Both the position numbers and the translations under genes were made by a program. From a phage, in the NCBI GenBank assembly GCA_011911785.1, contig GCA_011911785.1_4084.1: DNA of 64,000 bases; one strand, given 5' to 3'. Each line of letters begins with the position of its first letter. Within the stretch, counting starts at the first letter, position 1. The notes beneath the pieces were generated by a model, which did not search any database, was not told the origin of the DNA, and saw only the letters and a program-made list of their open reading frames with translations. Below are positions 475 to 52,463 of this stretch, piece by piece.

Positions 475-1621
<1,147 letters not shown>

Positions 1622-1622
1622 A

Positions 1623-1680
<58 letters not shown>

Positions 1681-1685
1681 CAATC

Positions 1686-1841
<156 letters not shown>

Positions 1842-1870
1842 CAAAAACGAAATTACAATAGGAAATTAAA

Positions 1871-2056
1871 ATGCAACTTTTAATTCTTTCAATATTGTAT
1901 ATTATTATAATGGTTCCGATATCAATACGTTTAATTACAGTTGAACGATTTTTATCGAAACATGGAAATAGGTCTATGATCTTTGTACCAATCGGTCTGA
2001 TATTGTTTGGTATATTTGCATTTATAATGGGAATTAACGCTACATTCATTTCATAG
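1871..2056 (+). CDS. small hydrophobic membrane protein
   Basis: ATG with AGGAAA upstream; two hydrophobic segments. Confidence 0.5.
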   Translation: MQLLILSILYIIIMVPISIRLITVERFLSKHGNRSMIFVPIGLILFGIFAFIMGINATFIS

Positions 2057-2065
2057 GAAACAAAT

Positions 2066-2547
<482 letters not shown>

Positions 2548-2554
2548 AAGAACG

Positions 2555-2587
<33 letters not shown>

Positions 2588-2588
2588 C

Positions 2589-2644
<56 letters not shown>

Positions 2645-2645
2645 T

Positions 2646-2879
<234 letters not shown>

Positions 2880-2882
2880 TGT

Positions 2883-3227
<345 letters not shown>

Positions 3228-11017: not shown

Positions 11018-11602
11018 ATGAATGTATTAGAAAATCGTTTAATTGTTAAAAATGGCAAGATGACTGTGAAACTATACTCTGATGAAGCAGATTCTTTCAT
11101 GGCGAAGGCAATCGAAAAGTCTGAGCGATATCAAGTTCTTGCACCTGAAAACAAATCACCTTATGGGTTTAATCACGCTCATAGTCATTTTGTTGGAATG
11201 GTTTGTGAACACGCATCGTTTGTATTGTTCTCTGAAATTGAAGCCAGTACTGGTATTAAGTTAAACATTGATCCAGCATTCCAATGTGATGGACGTGATG
11301 GTGAATGTGACATTAAAGTAAATGGATTGCGTATAGAAGTAAAAGGTATTAAGTATAAATCATGGAAAGACTTTGGTCCATGTGTCAGTACTCGACAATT
11401 GAAAAACATTCAGAAAAAAGCTGATGTTATTCTGTGGGTCTTGTATAATGAGAAAAAACAAGAATTTACGTTTGAGGGATTCAATTATGTAAAAGACATT
11501 AGTTCGATTCCAGTAGTATTAACAGGTGTACCAGGTCGTCCATTAATTGAGAATCACCCAGTTATTAGTATTCTTAAGCCACTACAGGAGCTACCACTAT
11601 GA
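11018..11602 (+). CDS. hypothetical protein
   Basis: ATG after AAAGGAG; track start 10937 precedes the promoter. Confidence 0.55.
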   Translation: MNVLENRLIVKNGKMTVKLYSDEADSFMAKAIEKSERYQVLAPENKSPYGFNHAHSHFVGMVCEHASFVLFSEIEASTGIKLNIDPAFQCDGRDGECDIKVNGLRIEVKGIKYKSWKDFGPCVSTRQLKNIQKKADVILWVLYNEKKQEFTFEGFNYVKDISSIPVVLTGVPGRPLIENHPVISILKPLQELPL

Positions 11603-11838
11603 TTAAATGTAATATTGAAGTAAATGAATACACTACTAATCAATATAACGGTGAGAAAGAGTTTTCATTTAGTACAGTACAACATGTATTGAATTTCCCA
11701 GTACTTCCATCTATTGGTTCAGTACTGACAATCACAAATACGTATGATACCCAGTACGAGATCCTTGATATTGAGTACAGAGCAAATCTTAGTTCCAGTG
11801 CAGATGTTGAAATCTATATCATCGTAGAAGAGGTATAA
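11599..11838 (+). CDS. hypothetical protein
   Basis: ATGA overlap. Confidence 0.5.
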   Translation: MIKCNIEVNEYTTNQYNGEKEFSFSTVQHVLNFPVLPSIGSVLTITNTYDTQYEILDIEYRANLSSSADVEIYIIVEEV

Positions 11839-12164
11839 TGATGTTCAAGAACTTCATTGCTATAGTAGCAGTACTATTCTTAACTACGTGCTTCATCAAT
11901 CCAGTTTATGCTGATAAAGTGCGATGGAAGGATGTTAAATCACCATCCTATTGTGCTGGTTATGCTAAGGTAAAGGATGAACAACACAATAAGCAGTACT
12001 ATAAGGATATGTTTTCATTTTACAATTCAATGATTTCAGAAACTGACTTGATGGCAAAGAGAGTTGATCGTGAAGATTTCCTTCAAGGCTATGACATGAA
12101 TGATGATGAAAAAACATTAGAATGCGTAGAAGTTTTTAATTACATACGAGGGTTTGATGAATGA
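11838..12164 (+). CDS. secreted small protein (signal peptide)
   Basis: Hydrophobic N-terminus ending VYA. Confidence 0.55.
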   Translation: MMFKNFIAIVAVLFLTTCFINPVYADKVRWKDVKSPSYCAGYAKVKDEQHNKQYYKDMFSFYNSMISETDLMAKRVDREDFLQGYDMNDDEKTLECVEVFNYIRGFDE

Positions 12165-12625
12165 CAGCACTGATATGTATTAGTCTATTTGTTATTGTAT
12201 ATCAATTGATTTTTTCTATCATTGATGATGTTGAACATATTGCATATAGTAAATCTATATCTAAGTTTGAGGGCAATCTTGCTTTTTTTAAATCATTATT
12301 TTGGACATATTTGTTACCCAAAGAATTTTTAGTTGTGTCTTCATATTATTCATCATATAATCTAAACTATAGTATTAGTGATTTAGCAAACATTGAACTG
12401 GTTTGTCGAAATGCTATTAACAATGTTAATGGATACAAAGTTGTGATGAAAAATCCAGGGGTGATCCATTTTATAGAACCAGGTAACAGCAGTTCTGAAC
12501 TAAAACTTAGTGATATGTATCTTTCATATAACTCAATGGAAAGATTCGTTTTACCACCGTACTATATTCGTTTGATCCTAAAAGCACTACAAAATAAAAC
12601 TACAGATGTTCTTGACAGGCTATAG
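12161..12625 (+). CDS. hypothetical protein with N-terminal TM segment
   Basis: ATGA overlap. Confidence 0.5.
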   Translation: MTALICISLFVIVYQLIFSIIDDVEHIAYSKSISKFEGNLAFFKSLFWTYLLPKEFLVVSSYYSSYNLNYSISDLANIELVCRNAINNVNGYKVVMKNPGVIHFIEPGNSSSELKLSDMYLSYNSMERFVLPPYYIRLILKALQNKTTDVLDRL

Positions 12626-25443: not shown

Positions 25444-25450
25444 TTAAAAA

Positions 25451-25483
25451 AGGTTGACTAACGTCAGCCTTTTTTGTTATACT
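25451..25483 (+). terminator. terminator hairpin fused to extended -10 promoter (TGtTATACT)
   Basis: AGGTTGACTAACGTCAGCCT hairpin, T-run, then -10. Confidence 0.6.
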
Positions 25484-28104: not shown

Positions 28105-28108
28105 AAAA

Positions 28109-28133
28109 GGGTTGACTTTTGTTGACCCTTTTT
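28109..28133 (+). terminator. intrinsic terminator (GGGTTGAC-TTTT-GTTGACCC plus T-run)
   Basis: Hairpin with wobble pairs plus T5. Confidence 0.6.
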
Positions 28134-28175
28134 GCTATTCTATAAATATGACATAGAGGTAACATTTAATAATCT

Positions 28176-29726: not shown

Positions 29727-29735
29727 TAAAAAAAG

Positions 29736-29768
29736 AGGTTGACTTCGGTCAGCCTTTTTTGCTATAAT
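29736..29768 (+). terminator. terminator hairpin (UUCG loop) fused to extended -10 promoter (TGcTATAAT)
   Basis: AGGTTGACTTCGGTCAGCCT, T6, TGCTATAAT. Confidence 0.7.
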
Positions 29769-30686: not shown

Positions 30687-30714
30687 TTGACAAACTCAAC
30701 TAGTACTGTATAAT
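30687..30714 (+). promoter_or_regulatory. sigma70-type promoter (TTGACA-16-TATAAT) with leader hairpin
   Basis: Hexamers; GGGATGA/TCATCCC hairpin at 30725-30743 before SD. Confidence 0.6.
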
Positions 30715-30761: not shown

Positions 30762-31316
30762 ATGATTACTTTTAAGAAAACTGCCAACCACATCCATGAA
30801 ATCTACATTAACGGTCACAAAGCTGGCCTTCTTCGTTTACTCGCCCATCATCCTGATGCTACCGTATCTGATAATGAACCTAAAGATTGGCGTGTCTTTT
30901 TCTTTGGGAAGTACAGTGATTTTCAAGTATCAAACCTGAAGAACATTCGTTCAGTGTGTACGTTAACTGAAATTAAAGAAAAATTAGCAGAAGCATTGAA
31001 AACTAATCTAGATGGAGTTCTTCCACCTGATAACTTTGTAGAGAAAGGTTATGCCTTAGCTCATTTCAAAGATGGAACTATTCAATCTATCTATACTGCA
31101 TATGAATATCAATGGACTGAGTACTTCACTTATGGCTCCCGTGATACTTTGATGGCTTCACGTAGTAAATTGGAAGAAGTATTAACTATTATAAATGAAC
31201 GTGAACGTCATTTATATGATAAACCTGAAATGTGGAGTTCAACTTACATTGACCGTATTGACTATGTTATGATGACTCCAATCTTTGACACTGCTTACTA
31301 TGATTCTATGAAATAA
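30762..31316 (+). CDS. hypothetical protein
   Basis: ATG after GAGGAACTACC. Confidence 0.6.
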   Translation: MITFKKTANHIHEIYINGHKAGLLRLLAHHPDATVSDNEPKDWRVFFFGKYSDFQVSNLKNIRSVCTLTEIKEKLAEALKTNLDGVLPPDNFVEKGYALAHFKDGTIQSIYTAYEYQWTEYFTYGSRDTLMASRSKLEEVLTIINERERHLYDKPEMWSSTYIDRIDYVMMTPIFDTAYYDSMK

Positions 31317-31327
31317 GGATAACTTAT

Positions 31328-31504
31328 ATGAAACTACGTACTCGCAATCGTTTGATGGATGAACTGTACCACGAACGCTATACATTGAATGAAGTAAAGC
31401 GTCAGTTAATGCATACCTATCAGTTACCAGCCCGTGCAGCGAAACAACGTGCTAACGAATTGCTGAAAGAAGCAATCGAGTACTGGGAATCTGATTCGTA
31501 CTAA
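31328..31504 (+). CDS. small basic protein (58 aa)
   Basis: ATG after AAGGATAA; below ORF-track size cutoff. Confidence 0.4.
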   Translation: MKLRTRNRLMDELYHERYTLNEVKRQLMHTYQLPARAAKQRANELLKEAIEYWESDSY

Positions 31505-31543
31505 TATTACGTGATATGTCACGTTAATTAAGTGAGGCGATAA

Positions 31544-31795
31544 ATGAAAATTTTATTAGTTCTAATACTACTAATTGTTTTACCATTTACTTTAGTATCC
31601 CCTGAACTTGCATGGAATGTGTTTGTGTACTTAGTATGTACTATTGTAGTAAATGGTATCTTGTTCTTAGTTCTATTCATAAATGGAATAGGACACGGTG
31701 GAGGATGGACCAGTACTGCTGATATTGTACATAAAACCACTATGTCTTTATTTGTAGTGTGGAATTTATTCTGGACTTGGTTTGTGTTCTTCTAA
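31544..31795 (+). CDS. small multi-pass membrane protein
   Basis: ATG after GAGGCGATAA; hydrophobic. Confidence 0.5.
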   Translation: MKILLVLILLIVLPFTLVSPELAWNVFVYLVCTIVVNGILFLVLFINGIGHGGGWTSTADIVHKTTMSLFVVWNLFWTWFVFF

Positions 31796-31803
31796 TTAAA
31801 AAT

Positions 31804-32175
31804 ATGAATATAGATTTGAAAGGTGCAACCAGAACTGTTATCCTTATTGGGGATTATGCTATCAAGATTCCAACCTTCAAAAGCTGGAAGTTATTCCTAA
31901 CTGGAATGATAGCTAACCTCAATGAACGCTCATGGATGCAGTACTCCAAGCGTAGTGACAGTGGGATATGTCCTACTCTGTGGTCATCGCGAACTGGCTT
32001 AATAACAGTACAGAAACGTTGTAAGCCAGTACAACATAGGGGTTTGTTTTGGGTGGAGTTGAGTGCATTAGCATTGAATTCAGAGTTGAGTACTGACTTC
32101 TTCTATTCAGATGCGAAGCCAGAAAACTTTGGATATTTGAATGGTAAGTTAGTTAAGCTTGATTATGGAGATTAA
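31804..32175 (+). CDS. small protein with kinase-like motifs (DAKPEN, DYGD)
   Basis: Motifs resemble kinase catalytic loop and DFG; only ~124 aa, assignment tentative. Confidence 0.4.
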   Translation: MNIDLKGATRTVILIGDYAIKIPTFKSWKLFLTGMIANLNERSWMQYSKRSDSGICPTLWSSRTGLITVQKRCKPVQHRGLFWVELSALALNSELSTDFFYSDAKPENFGYLNGKLVKLDYGD

Positions 32176-32202
32176 TATGTACGCATTGTATAATAAAGAA
32201 AA

Positions 32203-32235
32203 GGGTTGACTTCAGTCAGCCCTTTTTGCTATAAT
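32203..32235 (+). terminator. terminator hairpin fused to extended -10 promoter (TGcTATAAT)
   Basis: GGGTTGACTTCAGTCAGCCC, T5, TGCTATAAT. Confidence 0.7.
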
Positions 32236-32263: not shown

Positions 32264-32701
32264 ATGACACGCATTAACTTAGTACACGTTAAAGAACTTG
32301 CTGACCAACATCTGATGGCTGAATATCGTGAACTTCCACGTGTGTTTGGTGCTGTACAAAAACATGTTCAAGCACGTAAGCGTGTACGTGATTTCAAAAT
32401 TAACAGTACTTATCTGTTAGGTTCAGGTCATGTAACATTCTTCTACGACAAGTTACTGTACTTACAGAAGCGTCATATTGATATTGTTAACGAATGTTTG
32501 CGTCGTGGTATGAAGATTCAAAACACTGAAGTAAACGACATTAGCGGCTTCCCTGCTGAGTTTTGTAATGACTACGTACCATCGGAGTCCGAGATTAAAA
32601 CATCACGCGAGCGTTTGATTGAGAAGCTTCAGATGAAGCCTAAGTGGTATAAGTTTACTGATGTTGAGCTACCTGTATATTATGTTGATATGATACAATG
32701 A
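32264..32701 (+). CDS. denV: endonuclease V (pyrimidine dimer DNA glycosylase/AP lyase), T4 DenV-like
   Basis: [35 protein letters not shown]...[10 protein letters not shown] matches T4 endonuclease V as recalled from memory along most of its length. Confidence 0.9.
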
Positions 32702-32925: not shown

Positions 32926-32931
32926 TATAAG

Positions 32932-32964
32932 GGGTTGACTTCGGTCAGCCCTTTTTGCTATAAT
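32932..32964 (+). terminator. terminator hairpin (UUCG loop) fused to extended -10 promoter
   Basis: GGGTTGACTTCGGTCAGCCC, T5, TGCTATAAT. Confidence 0.7.
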
Positions 32965-32990: not shown

Positions 32991-33227
32991 ATGAAACTAT
33001 CTTTTATACGTTTAGCAGAATTCTTCGGTACTGATGTAATTACTCTACAACAAATCGCAGATAATACATCATTAACTACGCAAGAAGTACTTGACTTAGA
33101 TGTAATTAAGAGCGATAATACTTCCATTGATTTCAAAGAAGGTCTTGTCGAAAAAGATAAGATTCAAGCTAAGATTCATGGTGCTGGGCGGGTTCAGTAC
33201 TGGAAAGGAGTTTTAAGTAATGTTTGA
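32991..33227 (+). CDS. hypothetical protein
   Basis: ATG after AGAGGTAACAC. Confidence 0.5.
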   Translation: MKLSFIRLAEFFGTDVITLQQIADNTSLTTQEVLDLDVIKSDNTSIDFKEGLVEKDKIQAKIHGAGRVQYWKGVLSNV

Positions 33228-34347
33228 ACAGTACTATTTTAATGAAGATGGTGAAAAAGTTTATTTTTATGAAGAGCATGGAATGCTTTTTGAGTGGATG
33301 AAAGCCGAAGATATAAATTTTGTAAAAAAATCCAACATTGCTCAAGATCCTATTAGTATTATGGGTGAAATAAATGATCCAAGAGTTCTTGGATTCTATA
33401 TCAATAGATCACAAGATTATATATCTAAATCAAAAACCAAACTTGTAGTGAATAACGATGGTATGTTAGTTATTGGAGCCACCTGCACGAATTTTATTAG
33501 GCAGGGATTTAATGGGAAGATTTTTTACAATATTATTAATATTCCATATTACAGCCTTAATCATATTAGTGTCATCAACAAAAAATATGGTTATGATAAA
33601 TTTACTTATAGTGGAATAACTTCGTTTAACTCTACACTTCCTAGTAGAACTAAAATTGAAGTAGTATGTAATGATTGTGGTGATATAAAAAAACCCACAA
33701 TTACTGACTTAGCTACTGGTAAAATTGGTTGTCAAGAATGCACGAAACAAACTTTAGGTGAATTTATAAAAAAATCACATCTTATACACGGAAATAAGTA
33801 TGATTATTCTTTATATGACTACATTAACAACCAAGTAACCTCTATTATAATATGCAAAGAACATGGTGAATTTCAACAAACACCAAATTCACATCTGTCT
33901 GGTTCTGGTTGTCCCACGTGTGCAGTAAAAGGATTTAAAACTTCCAAGCCTGGAAGATTTTATATTCACAATGATTATGCAAAAAAATCGGATAAAGCTG
34001 GTATTACAAACAAAACTATTAAAGCAAGATTAAGTCCACAAAACTTATCTTATAAAAAAATATATAAAGTAGATAATTTTTGGAGTAATGAAATTTCCAT
34101 TTTATTTCATAAGAATGTGGGTGGGAAACTTGCTAGAGAATTGGAAATAATAATACATACAATTGCGTTATGTGGTAAACTATATAATAAAGGTTATTAT
34201 GAAAAGGGAGATGGTTGCACAGAAACATTCAATAATATCCATCGTCCTAAAGTTAATGAAGCCATTAAAAAATTCTTAGCTGAACATGAAGGAGAATACA
34301 TCATTGAACGTGATATCAATGGTATTTTTGGTGAAGTGATTGTATAA
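33220..34347 (+). CDS. hypothetical protein with Cys/His zinc-ribbon-like motifs (possible nuclease)
   Basis: CNDC, CQEC, CKEHG, HLSGSGCPTC motifs; function not established. Confidence 0.5.
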   Translation: MFEQYYFNEDGEKVYFYEEHGMLFEWMKAEDINFVKKSNIAQDPISIMGEINDPRVLGFYINRSQDYISKSKTKLVVNNDGMLVIGATCTNFIRQGFNGKIFYNIINIPYYSLNHISVINKKYGYDKFTYSGITSFNSTLPSRTKIEVVCNDCGDIKKPTITDLATGKIGCQECTKQTLGEFIKKSHLIHGNKYDYSLYDYINNQVTSIIICKEHGEFQQTPNSHLSGSGCPTCAVKGFKTSKPGRFYIHNDYAKKSDKAGITNKTIKARLSPQNLSYKKIYKVDNFWSNEISILFHKNVGGKLARELEIIIHTIALCGKLYNKGYYEKGDGCTETFNNIHRPKVNEAIKKFLAEHEGEYIIERDINGIFGEVIV

Positions 34348-34355
34348 AACAAAAA

Positions 34356-34387
34356 GGTTGACTTCGGTCAGCCCTTTTTGCTATAAT
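34356..34387 (+). terminator. terminator hairpin (UUCG loop) fused to extended -10 promoter
   Basis: GGTTGACTTCGGTCAGCC, T5, TGCTATAAT. Confidence 0.7.
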
Positions 34388-48013: not shown

Positions 48014-49123
48014 TTATTTTGGTAAATCAATTTTAGTAAAGACTGCAACATCCTCGCTTGCACCGGGAATGGCGTAATACGTTCCAGTACTATATACATC
48101 TCCATTTTTGGTTAATATTGAAGTCAAACCATCACTAAAAAGAACATCCCTAATCTCACTAACTTCAACGGGTAATTGTAAATTTGTAGCACTATATATA
48201 GCACCAGTTTGAGAATTGTTTAATCCCAAACCACGGTTCGCCCCAACACCCTTCTGATATGTACTGGTAATTACCATTTGTGTAGCAGTATTTAATGCAG
48301 GTGAATTCGTCATAAACAACGGAGAACTATTAGGAAAAGTACTTGCAGGAACTGCACGGAATGTAGTCGTGCCTGAACTAAGAAAGTTTGGAGTTTGACC
48401 ACATACGAAATATGATGTACCATTATAGTAATTAAATGCATTACCACCAATGGCTGCATCGATTACACCAGAACTACGTAATCCCCAAGTGTTAATTTGT
48501 GTTTGGTCCCCTGTACCATGCTGCCCACTGCTATTCCATCCAGAACTATATAGCTTATTATCTAATGTAATATACATACTATCATTTGCATTAGTCATTA
48601 CTTTACGCACGTTAGTAGCACATTGAGTTAATGTGTAAATCGATGATGAGCCAATACCTAAAGAACCACGATATCCATTATCTCCTGCACCATAGAGTAC
48701 TGAACTAGTGCTAAGTACAAATATTAAACCATTTGTACATACAATATTAGCAATTTCACTCACTGGTATAGCATTGGTAAACCAATTAGTCCTTTCAACT
48801 AATATAGTACTGTAAGAAGTAGTTGTAGAAGATGAGAACCAGTACGTTTCACCCGATGTCCATATCGTATTATCATTTTTAATAATAACAAGTGTACGAC
48901 CACCCACGAAAAAATTAGAAACATCTGAACTTACTAATATCCATGAAGATACCGTGTTGTTATTACCATTTCCAGATTCACCACCTTGATTTCTACCTAT
49001 GTAATATAAATCATGTGAATCAGTCAATAAGAATTGACCTTGTGTAGAAGCACCAACTTTAATTATATTTTTAGGACCAGGTACAATATTCCCATACTCT
49101 AACATTCTAACAAAAGGTAACAT
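48014..49123 (-). CDS. beta-propeller family protein, MLPFVRMLEYGN N-terminal module
   Basis: Conserved start context and N-terminus. Confidence 0.65.
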   Translation of the reverse strand: MLPFVRMLEYGNIVPGPKNIIKVGASTQGQFLLTDSHDLYYIGRNQGGESGNGNNNTVSSWILVSSDVSNFFVGGRTLVIIKNDNTIWTSGETYWFSSSTTTSYSTILVERTNWFTNAIPVSEIANIVCTNGLIFVLSTSSVLYGAGDNGYRGSLGIGSSSIYTLTQCATNVRKVMTNANDSMYITLDNKLYSSGWNSSGQHGTGDQTQINTWGLRSSGVIDAAIGGNAFNYYNGTSYFVCGQTPNFLSSGTTTFRAVPASTFPNSSPLFMTNSPALNTATQMVITSTYQKGVGANRGLGLNNSQTGAIYSATNLQLPVEVSEIRDVLFSDGLTSILTKNGDVYSTGTYYAIPGASEDVAVFTKIDLPK

Positions 49124-49169
49124 AATTCCTCCTTTATTCATTATACTATATTTAATACAAATAAGAAAA

Positions 49170-49188
49170 GCCAGTACAGAGTACTGGC
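49170..49188 (-). terminator. intrinsic terminator, array cassette
   Basis: GCCAGTACAGAGTACTGGC hairpin. Confidence 0.6.
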
Positions 49189-49195
49189 TATTATA

Positions 49196-50338
49196 TTATT
49201 TCCACGGTAGAAGTGAATCAGGAACTCTGGTTGGTACTCTAACGGCTGGAACATTTCCAAGTTCAGGTAAACCACTCATATACAAATTGTTATTTTCATC
49301 AATTATCATTGAATAGAAATTATCAATTACGAAGCCTGAAATTCGTCTTCCTTCTAATGCATCAAGAACCATTTCGGTGAAAGTTAGTATATTTTCGGAT
49401 GTTTGATTAACACCACATGCACCATAGGTATTTCGACCACAAGTATATAACTTATTATTATTTTTAACAACACATCCATTCCCTTCGTTGTTGGATAAAC
49501 CACCCACCAACTCTATTTCACCTTGGAATGATAAATTGGGAATTAATGTACTCATTGGTACTGCTGATACTCTACCTACACCAGCTTGACCATATGCATT
49601 TGGTGAAGCAACCTTCACTGAACCATCATTAAGAAATATATATGAAGTACGGTATGTATTTACAGCTTGTATAGCATTGGTGATCGTATTGTCTTTTGTA
49701 AAACTTAATATATTTGATGTTGTTGTACTACCAGGAGCAACAGTATTTCCTGCATACCAATAGGAGCCATCATCAAGTACTAACCCAGTACTGAGCAAAG
49801 AACAGCCATAACTTTTAACATTTTCTATAGTGCTGTATCTGAACGATGTGACATTAGCTGTTGACGCGTTACCAAATACACCACCTTCGCCAGCACCACA
49901 GTAGAACCATTTTCCATTTTTTAAAAATACACGCAAATTCTGCCCAACAGCAATACCATCAATATCATCAGCACTGACACCAAAATCAGTGAAGTACTGG
50001 GTTACATCAATCCAAACCCCATTTGTATTTGTTCCGATTTGTGGCATTACTATACTAGCACCTGTGAACCAAATAGTTCCATCATTCTTAATGGCAATGG
50101 AACCAAGAACACCACCCCAGTAACGTTCAATATTATTATTCACACGGGTCCATACGGTGGATGATTGTAATGAACCATTACCACCTTGTCCAAATGAAGA
50201 TGAACCATACCAGTACAAGTCACCATTAACATGCAAATAAAAACGAGTATTATAATTTGCTTGTAATCTATTTTTAAATAGAGGTTTTGGTTCTGGTGCT
50301 TCATTTCCATACTCTAACATTCTAGCAAAAGGTAACAT
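49196..50338 (-). CDS. beta-propeller family protein, MLPFARMLEYGN; near-duplicate of 50412..51554
   Basis: Same length (380 aa) and long identical stretches with neighbour. Confidence 0.7.
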   Translation of the reverse strand: MLPFARMLEYGNEAPEPKPLFKNRLQANYNTRFYLHVNGDLYWYGSSSFGQGGNGSLQSSTVWTRVNNNIERYWGGVLGSIAIKNDGTIWFTGASIVMPQIGTNTNGVWIDVTQYFTDFGVSADDIDGIAVGQNLRVFLKNGKWFYCGAGEGGVFGNASTANVTSFRYSTIENVKSYGCSLLSTGLVLDDGSYWYAGNTVAPGSTTTSNILSFTKDNTITNAIQAVNTYRTSYIFLNDGSVKVASPNAYGQAGVGRVSAVPMSTLIPNLSFQGEIELVGGLSNNEGNGCVVKNNNKLYTCGRNTYGACGVNQTSENILTFTEMVLDALEGRRISGFVIDNFYSMIIDENNNLYMSGLPELGNVPAVRVPTRVPDSLLPWK

Positions 50339-50411: not shown

Positions 50412-51554
50412 TTATTTCCACGGTAGAAGTGAATCAGGAACCCTTGTCGGTACATTTGTAGTAGACACCCCATCAAGATTTGGTACACCGCATGTATATA
50501 AATTATCAGCATCGTCAACTAACATCGTATAGTTATATCCCCTACAAAAACTACTAACATTACGACCTTCTAATGCAGTAAGAATCATTTCAGTGAATGT
50601 TGTTATATTTGTCGAGGTTGAACCAACACCACATTGTCCATTTGAATTAAGACCACATAAAAATAACTTATTATCATTTTTAATTATACAGGATGGTCCA
50701 GTAAGGTTTGTACCAAGCTCACCCACTAACTCTATTTCACCTTGGAATGCTAAATTTGGAATTAATGTACTCATAGGGGCTGGTGTTGTATTCCCAGTAC
50801 CTGCTTGACCACGTTCGTTGGAAGATGCAACTTTAACTGTTCCATCACTAAGAAATATATAGGAAGTTTCAATTGTATTGACTGCTTTAATTGCAGTGCT
50901 GATAGAAGTTTCTTGTGTAAATCTTAGCACGTTTTGTGCTGACGTTCCCGATATAAACGTATTACCTGCATACCAATATGTACCATCATTGAGTACTAAT
51001 GCAGTACTTCGAATTGCACAACCAGCACTTCGAACATTTTCTATAGTACTGTACGTGAATTGTGAAACGCTTGCCGATGAACCATTTCCGAATACACCAC
51101 CACTCCCAGCACCACAGAAGAACCACTTTCCATTTTTCAAAAATACACGCATACACGCAGATATAACAATACTATCAATATCATCAGCACTGACACCGAA
51201 ATCAGCAAAGTGCGATGTCACATCAACCCAAACACCGTTAGTGTTTGATGCAATTACTGGAATAACAGAACTTGTACCAGTGTACCAAATAGTACCATCT
51301 TTCTTTATCGCTATTGTTCCTTGAACACCACCCCAATATCGTACAACATTTGTATTGACGAGAGTCCATGCGGTTGAAGAGTTCAATGAACCATTACCAC
51401 CTTGACCATATGATGAAGAACCAAACCAATATAGATTACCATTGGTGTGTAAATAAAATTTGGCATCTGCCGAGCATTGTAACCTATTTTTTAATCGTGG
51501 TGCGGGTTCCGGTGCAATATTCCCGTACTCTAACATTCTTGCAAAAGGTAACAT
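50412..51554 (-). CDS. beta-propeller family protein, MLPFARMLEYGN
   Basis: Starts 12 nt after upstream gene stop (co-transcribed). Confidence 0.7.
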   Translation of the reverse strand: MLPFARMLEYGNIAPEPAPRLKNRLQCSADAKFYLHTNGNLYWFGSSSYGQGGNGSLNSSTAWTLVNTNVVRYWGGVQGTIAIKKDGTIWYTGTSSVIPVIASNTNGVWVDVTSHFADFGVSADDIDSIVISACMRVFLKNGKWFFCGAGSGGVFGNGSSASVSQFTYSTIENVRSAGCAIRSTALVLNDGTYWYAGNTFISGTSAQNVLRFTQETSISTAIKAVNTIETSYIFLSDGTVKVASSNERGQAGTGNTTPAPMSTLIPNLAFQGEIELVGELGTNLTGPSCIIKNDNKLFLCGLNSNGQCGVGSTSTNITTFTEMILTALEGRNVSSFCRGYNYTMLVDDADNLYTCGVPNLDGVSTTNVPTRVPDSLLPWK

Positions 51555-51566
51555 AATTCCTCCATA

Positions 51567-52463
51567 TTATTTAAAAACATACTGCGTATTAACACGAGTG
51601 CCATTGTCAAAACCAAGTACATAAAATATCTCAGCACTATTCTTAGAACCAAATAACGCACCAGTACTACTACTCAAAGTAGTATTAACCGCTAAGGGAA
51701 TCCATATGTCTTCTTCTGCATCGTATCTCAATAAATTTAATGCACCATACGACACTGCATATATATTTTTATCATATGTACTGTAACATATTTTACTAGG
51801 GTTATTACCACCAACTGGTGCTATGTTAGACCACACCGCACTTTGTATATGATATTTTTGTGCAGTACTAGTACCTTGACCAGTAATATATATGTAAGTA
51901 CCATCCGTACACATATCACCACCTCCATTGTTATTTGTTCCATCACTTGTACCTAATGATGACCATGTATTAGTACTTGGAGTATAACTGTATAACGAAT
52001 TATTAGTAGGCGAACCCCACAAATATATCTTATCCCCAGCAGTAATCATCTTACTATACGCCAGTTGACTAGGCTTCCCAATACTGTTAGTGTTCAGAAT
52101 CCATGTATTTGTACTTATATTATATACATAAAAATTATTACTACTATTACCTGAACCACCAAACAAATATATTTTTCCCTGATAAGCACATAACGCACTA
52201 CCAAATGTAGATACAGGTGCATTGGCTAATTGTGACCACGTTCTTGTAGTTAAATTAAAACTCCATAACTGATTATCCGTCTGCACCGCATTCTGTATAC
52301 CACCAAATATATAAGCAATATTACTTTCCGCATCATACGTATAACCAAAGTTATTTCGTGCTGAAGGTACTGGTGTTGTAGTAAATTGTGTTCGTACTCC
52401 ACCATTTGGGCCAGGTAATGGACCTACATTCCCGAACTCAAACATTCTAACAAAAGGTAACAT
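51567..52463 (-). CDS. beta-propeller family protein, MLPFVRMFEFGN; Kelch-like repeats
   Basis: Conserved cassette start; IYLFGG/IYIFGG-type motifs. Confidence 0.65.
   Translation of the reverse strand: MLPFVRMFEFGNVGPLPGPNGGVRTQFTTTPVPSARNNFGYTYDAESNIAYIFGGIQNAVQTDNQLWSFNLTTRTWSQLANAPVSTFGSALCAYQGKIYLFGGSGNSSNNFYVYNISTNTWILNTNSIGKPSQLAYSKMITAGDKIYLWGSPTNNSLYSYTPSTNTWSSLGTSDGTNNNGGGDMCTDGTYIYITGQGTSTAQKYHIQSAVWSNIAPVGGNNPSKICYSTYDKNIYAVSYGALNLLRYDAEEDIWIPLAVNTTLSSSTGALFGSKNSAEIFYVLGFDNGTRVNTQYVFK

Follow-up and report, generated by a model that had tools for sequence, protein, structure and literature searches.

How short can an active protein kinase be? This question is raised by a small open reading frame (ORF) in a 64,000-nucleotide stretch of phage DNA (NCBI GenBank assembly GCA_011911785.1, contig GCA_011911785.1_4084.1; hereafter the window), which originates from an Asteriusvirus, a jumbo coliphage of ~350 kb. 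The gene, here termed mini-kinase, occupies positions 31804-32175 of the plus strand, starts with ATG and ends with TAA at 32173-32175. The 124 codons include the stop codon, thus the product has 123 amino acids and not 124, as counted in a preceding sequence-only reading. The same reading had seen in IGDYAIKIP near the N-terminus and in DAKPEN and DYGD near the C-terminus a resemblance to the lysine, catalytic-loop and DFG motifs of protein kinases, and it had considered either a degenerate kinase remnant or a minimal kinase-like fold. The three motifs were located at residues 15-23, 103-108 and 120-123, the last one forming the very C-terminus. Homologues start at the same position and initiation at an upstream GTG (31759) would overlap the preceding ORF, hence ATG 31804 is, by this comparison, the correct start. 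With a probability of roughly 60 %, the mini-kinase is a stand-alone, extremely reduced protein-kinase-like (PKL) enzyme, an active, constitutively open phosphotransferase of the Ser/Thr type that is expressed early.

Motif conservation and predicted fold

Conservation was counted over 253 family representatives aligned to the family hidden Markov model. The motifs noticed before turned out to be the best-conserved positions of the family; judged by these alignments, they are not due to chance. The β3 lysine K21 and the helix-C glutamate E41 are invariant, and their neighbours in helix C are kept nearly as strictly (N38 in 250 and G34 in 251 of 253). The turn between β1 and β2 carries a family signature, G-x-T-R-x-V, at the place of GxGxxG: G7 and R10 are each present in 250 sequences, the remaining three showing gaps here, and position 9 holds T or S in 242. 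We infer that this loop is the equivalent of the glycine loop of PKA. In the catalytic loop, the column of D103 holds D in 185 and E in 64 representatives (D/E in 249) and that of N108 holds N in 191 and S in 57 (N/S in 248); K105 is kept as K in 219. D120 of the DFG-type motif is D in 249/249 sequences aligned at this column; position 122 holds G or A in 237. The catalytic residues of Pkinase, i.e., the β3 Lys, the helix-C Glu, the D-x-K-x-x-N loop and DFG, are thus conserved family-wide. The loop occurs in two co-varying forms, D-x-K-x-x-N and E-x-K-x-x-S, with E combined with S in 52 sequences and with N in no more than two. Such a coupled change is expected for an active site that is maintained and not decaying. 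The Glu/Ser loop ('PVEnKxDSFGW'), an unusual version for a kinase, is carried by about one fifth of the family, e.g., P0092, P0095 and P0098. At the protein level, identity amounts to 99 % with A4_221 of Escherichia phage A4 and to 92-96 % with the orthologues of PBECO4, 121Q and other phages, all of which are annotated 'hypothetical protein'. The ratio of nonsynonymous to synonymous changes (pN/pS) was 0.05-0.11 in a comparison of the window with the A4 and 121Q orthologues. The window contains no paralogue of the gene.

AlphaFold2, supplied with a 118-sequence alignment, predicted a kinase-like fold with a predicted local distance difference test score (pLDDT) of 92.7 and a predicted template modelling score (pTM) of 0.82. 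The N-lobe consists of strands 2-4, 10-15 and 18-23, a helix 28-43 and strands 58-61 and 68-71; a helix 79-92, a short helix 97-101 and strands 109-112 and 115-118 follow, and the model has no helix after the last strand. As modelled, this is the core of the PKL fold: a five-stranded sheet and helix C in the N-lobe, followed by helix E, the catalytic loop and the hairpin bearing the Mg-binding Asp. The chain would run from the N-lobe through a direct linker, without helix D, into one helix-E-like helix, then through the catalytic loop, the β7-β8 hairpin and the DFG motif to its end. According to the model the mini-kinase is therefore a PKL core of Hanks subdomains I-VII, devoid of helix D, activation segment and helices F-I. 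Subdomains VIII-XI, i.e., the activation segment with APE, the Asp of helix F and helices G-I, are absent, as the chain ends after subdomain VII with D120-Y-G-D123. Helix F, the hydrophobic scaffold at the centre of the C-lobe, is regarded as universal in PKL enzymes.

The early end is a property of the family. Its median length is 123 amino acids, nearly all clusters matched by HMMER are 110-135 amino acids long, and the DFG-type Asp is followed by a median of three residues (249 members; at most five in 220 of them). The few longer members were inspected for a true C-lobe, which was rejected: their additional N- or C-terminal segments are unrelated or of low complexity, and the C-terminal tails of RP12 (209 amino acids), OBP (273 amino acids), P0226 and P0250 have neither APE nor a helix-F motif nor a Pfam match.

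Fold comparison of the model, with ~110 of the 123 residues aligned, gave scores of 8.7 for JAK, 8.6 for TTK, 8.4 for PknB, 8.3 for BRAF, 8.0 for RIO2, 7.9 for RIO1 and APH(2'') and 7.7 for Bud32. Small kinases scored 7.3 (OspG, 169 residues; the RNA kinase Ark1, 173) and 6.5 (NleH1, 160; HopBF1, 176). The main non-kinase entry was SAICAR synthetase with 8.3, an enzyme whose nucleotide-binding part resembles the kinase core. Foldseek against the PDB ranked Lpg2603, TTK/MPS1, RIOK2 and WbdD at the top, and against BFVD many uncharacterised phage proteins were retrieved, some of them named protein kinase. Searches by sequence gave little. In PDB profile searches (E<=10) TTK was the sole match at E 0.65, its 'SDLKPANF...LIDFG' being aligned by HMMER to the C-terminal third. 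With hhalign, D103, K105, N108, D120 and G122 fell on D166, K168, N171, D184 and G186 of PKA at a probability of 2 %, a low value that we attribute to the template, a single, manually entered PKA sequence. Since assignment by sequence failed, the kinase call is based on structure and motif conservation.

Proposed mechanism and competing explanations

Activity is suggested by two observations, the conservation of residues and the co-variation of the loop. The steps proposed here follow from what the corresponding residues do in canonical kinases. K21, held by E41, would position the α- and β-phosphates of ATP, N108 and D120 would bind Mg2+, and K105 would contact the γ-phosphate. D103, or Glu in other members, would serve as catalytic base. 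The G-x-T-R-x-V loop with R10 would clamp the phosphates in place of the GxGxxG clamp. The modelled protein has no peptide-binding lobe and no activation loop, P+1 pocket or helix-G platform; missing the latter three, it would be constitutively 'on' and unregulated with an open active site. Substrates may be phosphorylated loosely, or docking to a partner or substrate or self-association may be needed, covering the surface that normally lies under helix F. The D-x-K-P-E-N form, in which Lys follows the catalytic Asp at +2, marks Ser/Thr protein kinases; it is not known from aminoglycoside (APH)-, choline-kinase- or RIO-type enzymes. The loop favours a protein as substrate, which on this ground is most likely. 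The predicted early transcription together with the apparent behaviour as a mobile accessory gene would fit a role in host takeover or counter-defence.

A tentative proposal, overlapping with the PKL-enzyme reading and refining it more than competing with it, is a half-enzyme completed in a complex. The mini-kinase would then act as a homodimer, or a host or phage protein would supply the missing C-lobe surface, comparable to OspG, which needs E2~ubiquitin. In all kinases known to us helix F buries helix E and the catalytic loop, and this surface would be exposed in the mini-kinase. OspG, a minimal kinase, has been solved bound to an E2-Ub conjugate (4q5h), and LegK7 is activated by its substrate MOB1 (PMC12756638). 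However, the AlphaFold2 monomer is compact and confident by its pTM, and an adjacent phage-encoded partner is unsupported, as no neighbouring gene co-occurs across lineages. The latter was analysed by all-against-all clustering of the ORFs within 4 kb of the gene at 37 loci. A split kinase with its C-lobe in a neighbouring gene is likewise not supported, as denV and homing-endonuclease-like genes were the only neighbours that recurred across lineages.

We consider it unlikely that the mini-kinase is a minimal PKL-fold kinase with a non-protein substrate, e.g., an RNA or tRNA 2'-OH, a DNA end, a DNA lesion intermediate, or a small molecule of the nucleotide or signalling type. Gene contexts with denV, rnlB, ligase and tRNAs and the precedent of Ark1 point in this direction. 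Apart from the Ser/Thr-kinase form of the loop, the neighbourhoods themselves weigh against it: no neighbour is conserved across lineages, many contexts are devoid of a nucleic-acid theme, and the denV gene of phage RaK2 is preceded by a nuclease instead of a mini-kinase.

Somewhat less probable still is a non-catalytic nucleotide-binding protein or pseudokinase, for instance an ATP-dependent binder, a switch, a sponge or a RIO-like ATPase that acts via partner binding. In pseudokinases, one or more of K, D and DFG are typically gone, and such a loss is not seen in the mini-kinase. All residues of phosphotransfer are kept, among them the catalytic base and K105, for which a pure binder would have no use, and the coordinated change of the loop from D..N to E..S also speaks against this explanation.

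The other half of the sequence-only interpretation, a decaying remnant or pseudogene fragment of a full-length kinase gene, as well as a chance ORF with chance motifs, has the short length and the missing Pfam match in its favour and is excluded by the common length of ~120 amino acids and the common end point in >1,200 clusters, the invariant catalytic residues, the low pN/pS, the confident structure prediction and the terminator/promoter element directly 3' of the gene, with no C-lobe coding sequence downstream; the minimal fold stands.

An active kinase of 120 residues, its activity and function being proposed here from sequence and model, would surprise kinase structural biologists, and the question is directly testable. 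A bolder version is conceivable yet doubtful: the ~120-residue protein as a self-sufficient active protein kinase, the smallest known, employed by thousands of phages as an unregulated early weapon that phosphorylates host proteins, defence proteins among them. In that case phosphotransfer would require no more than Hanks subdomains I-VII, with neither helix F nor an activation segment, and the phages would have a functional parallel to T7 gp0.7 from an independent lineage.

Relation to known short kinases

The superfamily of the mini-kinase is known; its architecture goes beyond that of known minimal kinases, since the chain stops at DFG and helix F is missing, and it may be the smallest kinase core known. 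The type III effectors OspG, NleH1 and NleH2 of Shigella and enterohaemorrhagic and enteropathogenic Escherichia coli are among the closest relatives in architecture, though not in sequence. OspG and NleH 'lack subdomains VIII-XI' (PMC12756638), and the mini-kinase falls under the minimal-kinase architecture as defined in that paper. The solved effector domains comprise 160-169 residues and keep helices after DFG, whereas the mini-kinase ends three residues after the DFG Asp. The effectors have N-terminal regions for secretion or targeting and act in eukaryotic cells, whereas the mini-kinase family is phage-encoded and would, if acting, act in bacteria. Sequence homology to OspG or NleH was not found in the PDB profile search (E<=10). 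Compared with the Hanks kinases of PF00069 (e.g., TTK/MPS1, PknB, PKA), the mini-kinase has less than half the size, no Pfam match and G-x-T-R-x-V instead of GxGxxG, and lacks helix D, the activation segment with APE and helices F, G, H and I. HopBF1, a plant-pathogen effector, and Ark1/ArkI of archaeal tRNA modification are at least ~50 residues longer with structure after DFG; in the PDB profile searches no sequence similarity of these to the mini-kinase was detected.

The best functional analogy is T7K (T7 gp0.7), a hyper-promiscuous, anti-defence kinase that is likewise phage-encoded and early. It works as residues 1-242 with a DFG-like DPV at 213-215, the domain ending ~27 residues after DPV, phosphorylates most of the proteome and thereby disarms host defences (PMC13645617). 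A relationship by descent was rejected: blastp yielded no meaningful alignment and hhalign a probability of 0.07 %. T7K differs by DPV in place of DYG, by ~65 additional amino acids at the N-terminus and by a shut-off/DNA-binding domain at the C-terminus. For Asteriusvirus G17 a T7K homologue has been reported; since its motif is of the DP type, it is presumably a gene different from the mini-kinase. The window contains no T7K homologue. As sequence links to OspG/NleH and T7K were not found, these are analogies and not family members, and as such they may serve as precedents for activity in severely shortened kinases.

A paper on Asteriusvirus Sharanji mentions, besides a T7K homologue, 'another protein kinase' of unknown function without details. 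This may refer to a different group of proteins. Uncharacterised proteins of 168-194 amino acids in the phages CBB (A0A1L2CVG3, A0A1L2CVI5) and RaK2 (H6X4G3) matched the mini-kinase model in BFVD with template modelling (TM) scores of 0.68-0.79 at 16-19 % identity. They possibly constitute a second, slightly longer minimal kinase-like family of related jumbo phages.

Family, neighbourhoods and genomic setting

By profile comparison the mini-kinase belongs to PHROG 4301 ('unknown function'), which matched the query with E 2.7e-43 over profile positions 40-167 of 225 and matched all 118 aligned homologues. Pfam gave no family at E<=1 for the query, PF00069 Pkinase included, and NCBIfam and PADLOC gave no match. 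Pkinase matched none of the 118 homologues; among them only weak matches to ABC1 and PIP49_C appeared. With tblastn the family was found in 119 sequenced phages of Escherichia, Pseudomonas, Aeromonas, Erwinia, Salmonella, Klebsiella, Ralstonia and other hosts. An exhaustive HMMER search with the family profile over 1.84 billion representative proteins retrieved at least 1,211 clusters (50 % identity) at E<=1e-3, 642 of these at E<=1e-10. Left out of the family statistics was P0141 of the representative library, rejected as a homologue: with 1,073 amino acids in ~16 tandem copies of a 67-residue unit, it matched the family profile (positions 51-101, E 5e-25) and looks like a repeat artefact or a mis-assembly. 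The kinase likeness has so far been caught only sporadically by automatic annotation, as 'STE family protein kinase catalytic domain containing protein' in Erwinia phage pEa_SNUABM_5, 'serine/threonine kinase' in AH04 and 'Protein kinase domain-containing protein' in RP12 (UniProt). In our literature searches, no published account of the family, of the truncated architecture or of an activity was found. A virion protein was considered and rejected: in Shewanella phage SXP01, it is the neighbouring gene that bears the label 'putative virion structural protein', and the paper on the virion proteome of phAPEC6 makes no mention of the mini-kinase.

Across the 37 loci, the only neighbours shared between lineages were denV, in two lineages, and homing-endonuclease-like genes. 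Elsewhere the surroundings differ. The gene is directly followed by rnlB in JS10, lies between ipI and the tRNA array in a Tequatrovirus, near DNA ligase, hydrolase and exonuclease genes in PaMx11, between capsid and tail-tube genes in Acinetobacter prophages, upstream of the terminase in an Aquimarina prophage, beside Asn synthase and Dam genes on a large contig, in the Rz-Nu1 'moron' slot of a lambdoid Salmonella prophage and among small unknown genes at other loci. It appears to behave as a mobile and self-contained accessory gene, carried by virulent as well as temperate phages of Proteobacteria.

The adjacency to denV, already pointed out in the sequence-only reading, holds: denV is the next gene downstream (Table 1). 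The order mini-kinase before denV recurs in PaMx25-like Pseudomonas siphoviruses, namely PaMx25 (51298-52100), NP1, PAJD-1 (11365-12167), TIVP-H6 (49081-49883) and metagenomic relatives, with identities to the window of ~30 % for mini-kinase and ~38 % for denV. At these loci, including L024 (3902-4989), L025, L028, L029 and L030, the two genes abut or overlap. The L024 ORF has 200 amino acids; the added segment is a separate 60-amino-acid ORF in L029 and L030. In PaMx11, a close relative of PaMx25, the position of denV is held by an unrelated 'hydrolase' of 183 amino acids without Pfam match. Pure chance is unlikely for an adjacency in two unrelated phage types, and the pair may represent an old two-gene module or a functional link. 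An obligatory partnership was rejected: the adjacency is absent from the related jumbo phage RaK2, from PaMx11, T4-like phages and prophages, thus denV is not a general partner.

The features around the gene are compiled in Table 1. In the window, the mini-kinase is the last of four same-strand ORFs downstream of a perfect sigma70-type promoter, which probably starts a transcription unit of 30762-32175. None of the three upstream ORFs is conserved beside the mini-kinase in other phage lineages. The third of them, very hydrophobic and without PHROG or Pfam match, probably encodes a small multi-pass membrane protein, and its end close ahead of the mini-kinase start suggests that both may be translationally coupled. 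Downstream, the AAAGGGTTGACTTCAGTCAGCCCTTTTTGCTATAAT element has an 8-bp GC-rich hairpin, read directly from the sequence, and then a T-run; a TTGACT -35 box lies within the hairpin arm and TATAAT forms the -10 box. It is predicted to close the mini-kinase unit and to open the denV unit. The ~36-nt element occurs in six plus-strand copies (25448-25483, 28106-28141, 29733-29768, 32200-32235, 32929-32964 and 34352-34387), which look like combined terminators and early sigma70 promoters dividing the region into short transcription units. From these signals we infer that the mini-kinase is transcribed early by the host RNA polymerase in short units. The reverse-strand translation of the element appears in the ORF list as a recurring spurious peptide, 'IIAKRADRSQP'.

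Table 1 Features of the mini-kinase locus in the window
Feature	Positions	Strand	Evidence or remark
Sigma70-type promoter, perfect, TTGACA-16-TATAAT	30687..30714	+	Consensus scan, 12/12 matches
Upstream ORF, 184 aa, PHROG 22186	30762-31316	+	ORF list, PHROG match
Upstream ORF, 58 aa	31328-31504	+	ORF list
Upstream ORF, 83-aa hydrophobic protein	31544-31795	+	Ends 8 nt before mini-kinase ATG
Mini-kinase coding sequence	31804..32175	+	123 aa + stop; predicted protein-kinase-like core, Hanks subdomains I-VII only
Putative glycine-rich-loop equivalent G7-A-T9-R10-T-V12	31822..31839	+	β1-β2 turn; family signature G-x-T-R-x-V instead of GxGxxG
K21, β3 'VAIK' lysine (A-I-K-I-P)	31864..31866	+	253/253; in model strand 18-23
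E41, αC glutamate, in helix F31-x-x-G34-x-x-x-N38-x-x-E41	31924..31926	+	253/253; model helix 28-43
Catalytic loop D103-A-K105-P-E-N108, Ser/Thr-kinase-type D-x-K-P-E-N	32110..32127	+	hhalign, HMMER, conservation, co-variation
D120-Y-G122-D, DFG-type Mg-binding motif, C-terminus of protein	32161..32172	+	Conservation; alignments to PKA D184-F-G and TTK DFG
Composite hairpin terminator + sigma70-like promoter, AAAGGGTTGACTTCAGTCAGCCCTTTTTGCTATAAT	32200..32235	+	Sequence; promoter scan 11/12 + TG
denV, pyrimidine-dimer DNA glycosylase (endonuclease V)	32264..32701	+	Pfam PF03013 Pyr_excise E 8.8e-15; PHROG 1183 E 4e-59

About 1 kb downstream of the mini-kinase lies a homing-endonuclease-like gene (33220-34347, plus strand; PHROG 681/559, weak DUF4379/DUF723 zinc-finger matches). 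Its blastp relatives were located 0.5-2 kb from the mini-kinase in Aeromonas phage contigs, and DUF723 genes are close to it in Acinetobacter prophages. Related genes were present at loci L009/L010/L012 (1191-2189, 4913-5926), L015 (5588-6367), L041 (6600-7367) and L042 (6246-7235). Such genes are possibly a route by which the region is mobilised between phages, or they coincide with the mini-kinase in endonuclease-rich genomes. The window also carries a cluster of five tRNA genes at 922-3217 on the plus strand (Gly-TCC, Ser-GCT, Met-CAT, Asn-GTT and Thr-TGT), as is typical of jumbo and T4-like phages.
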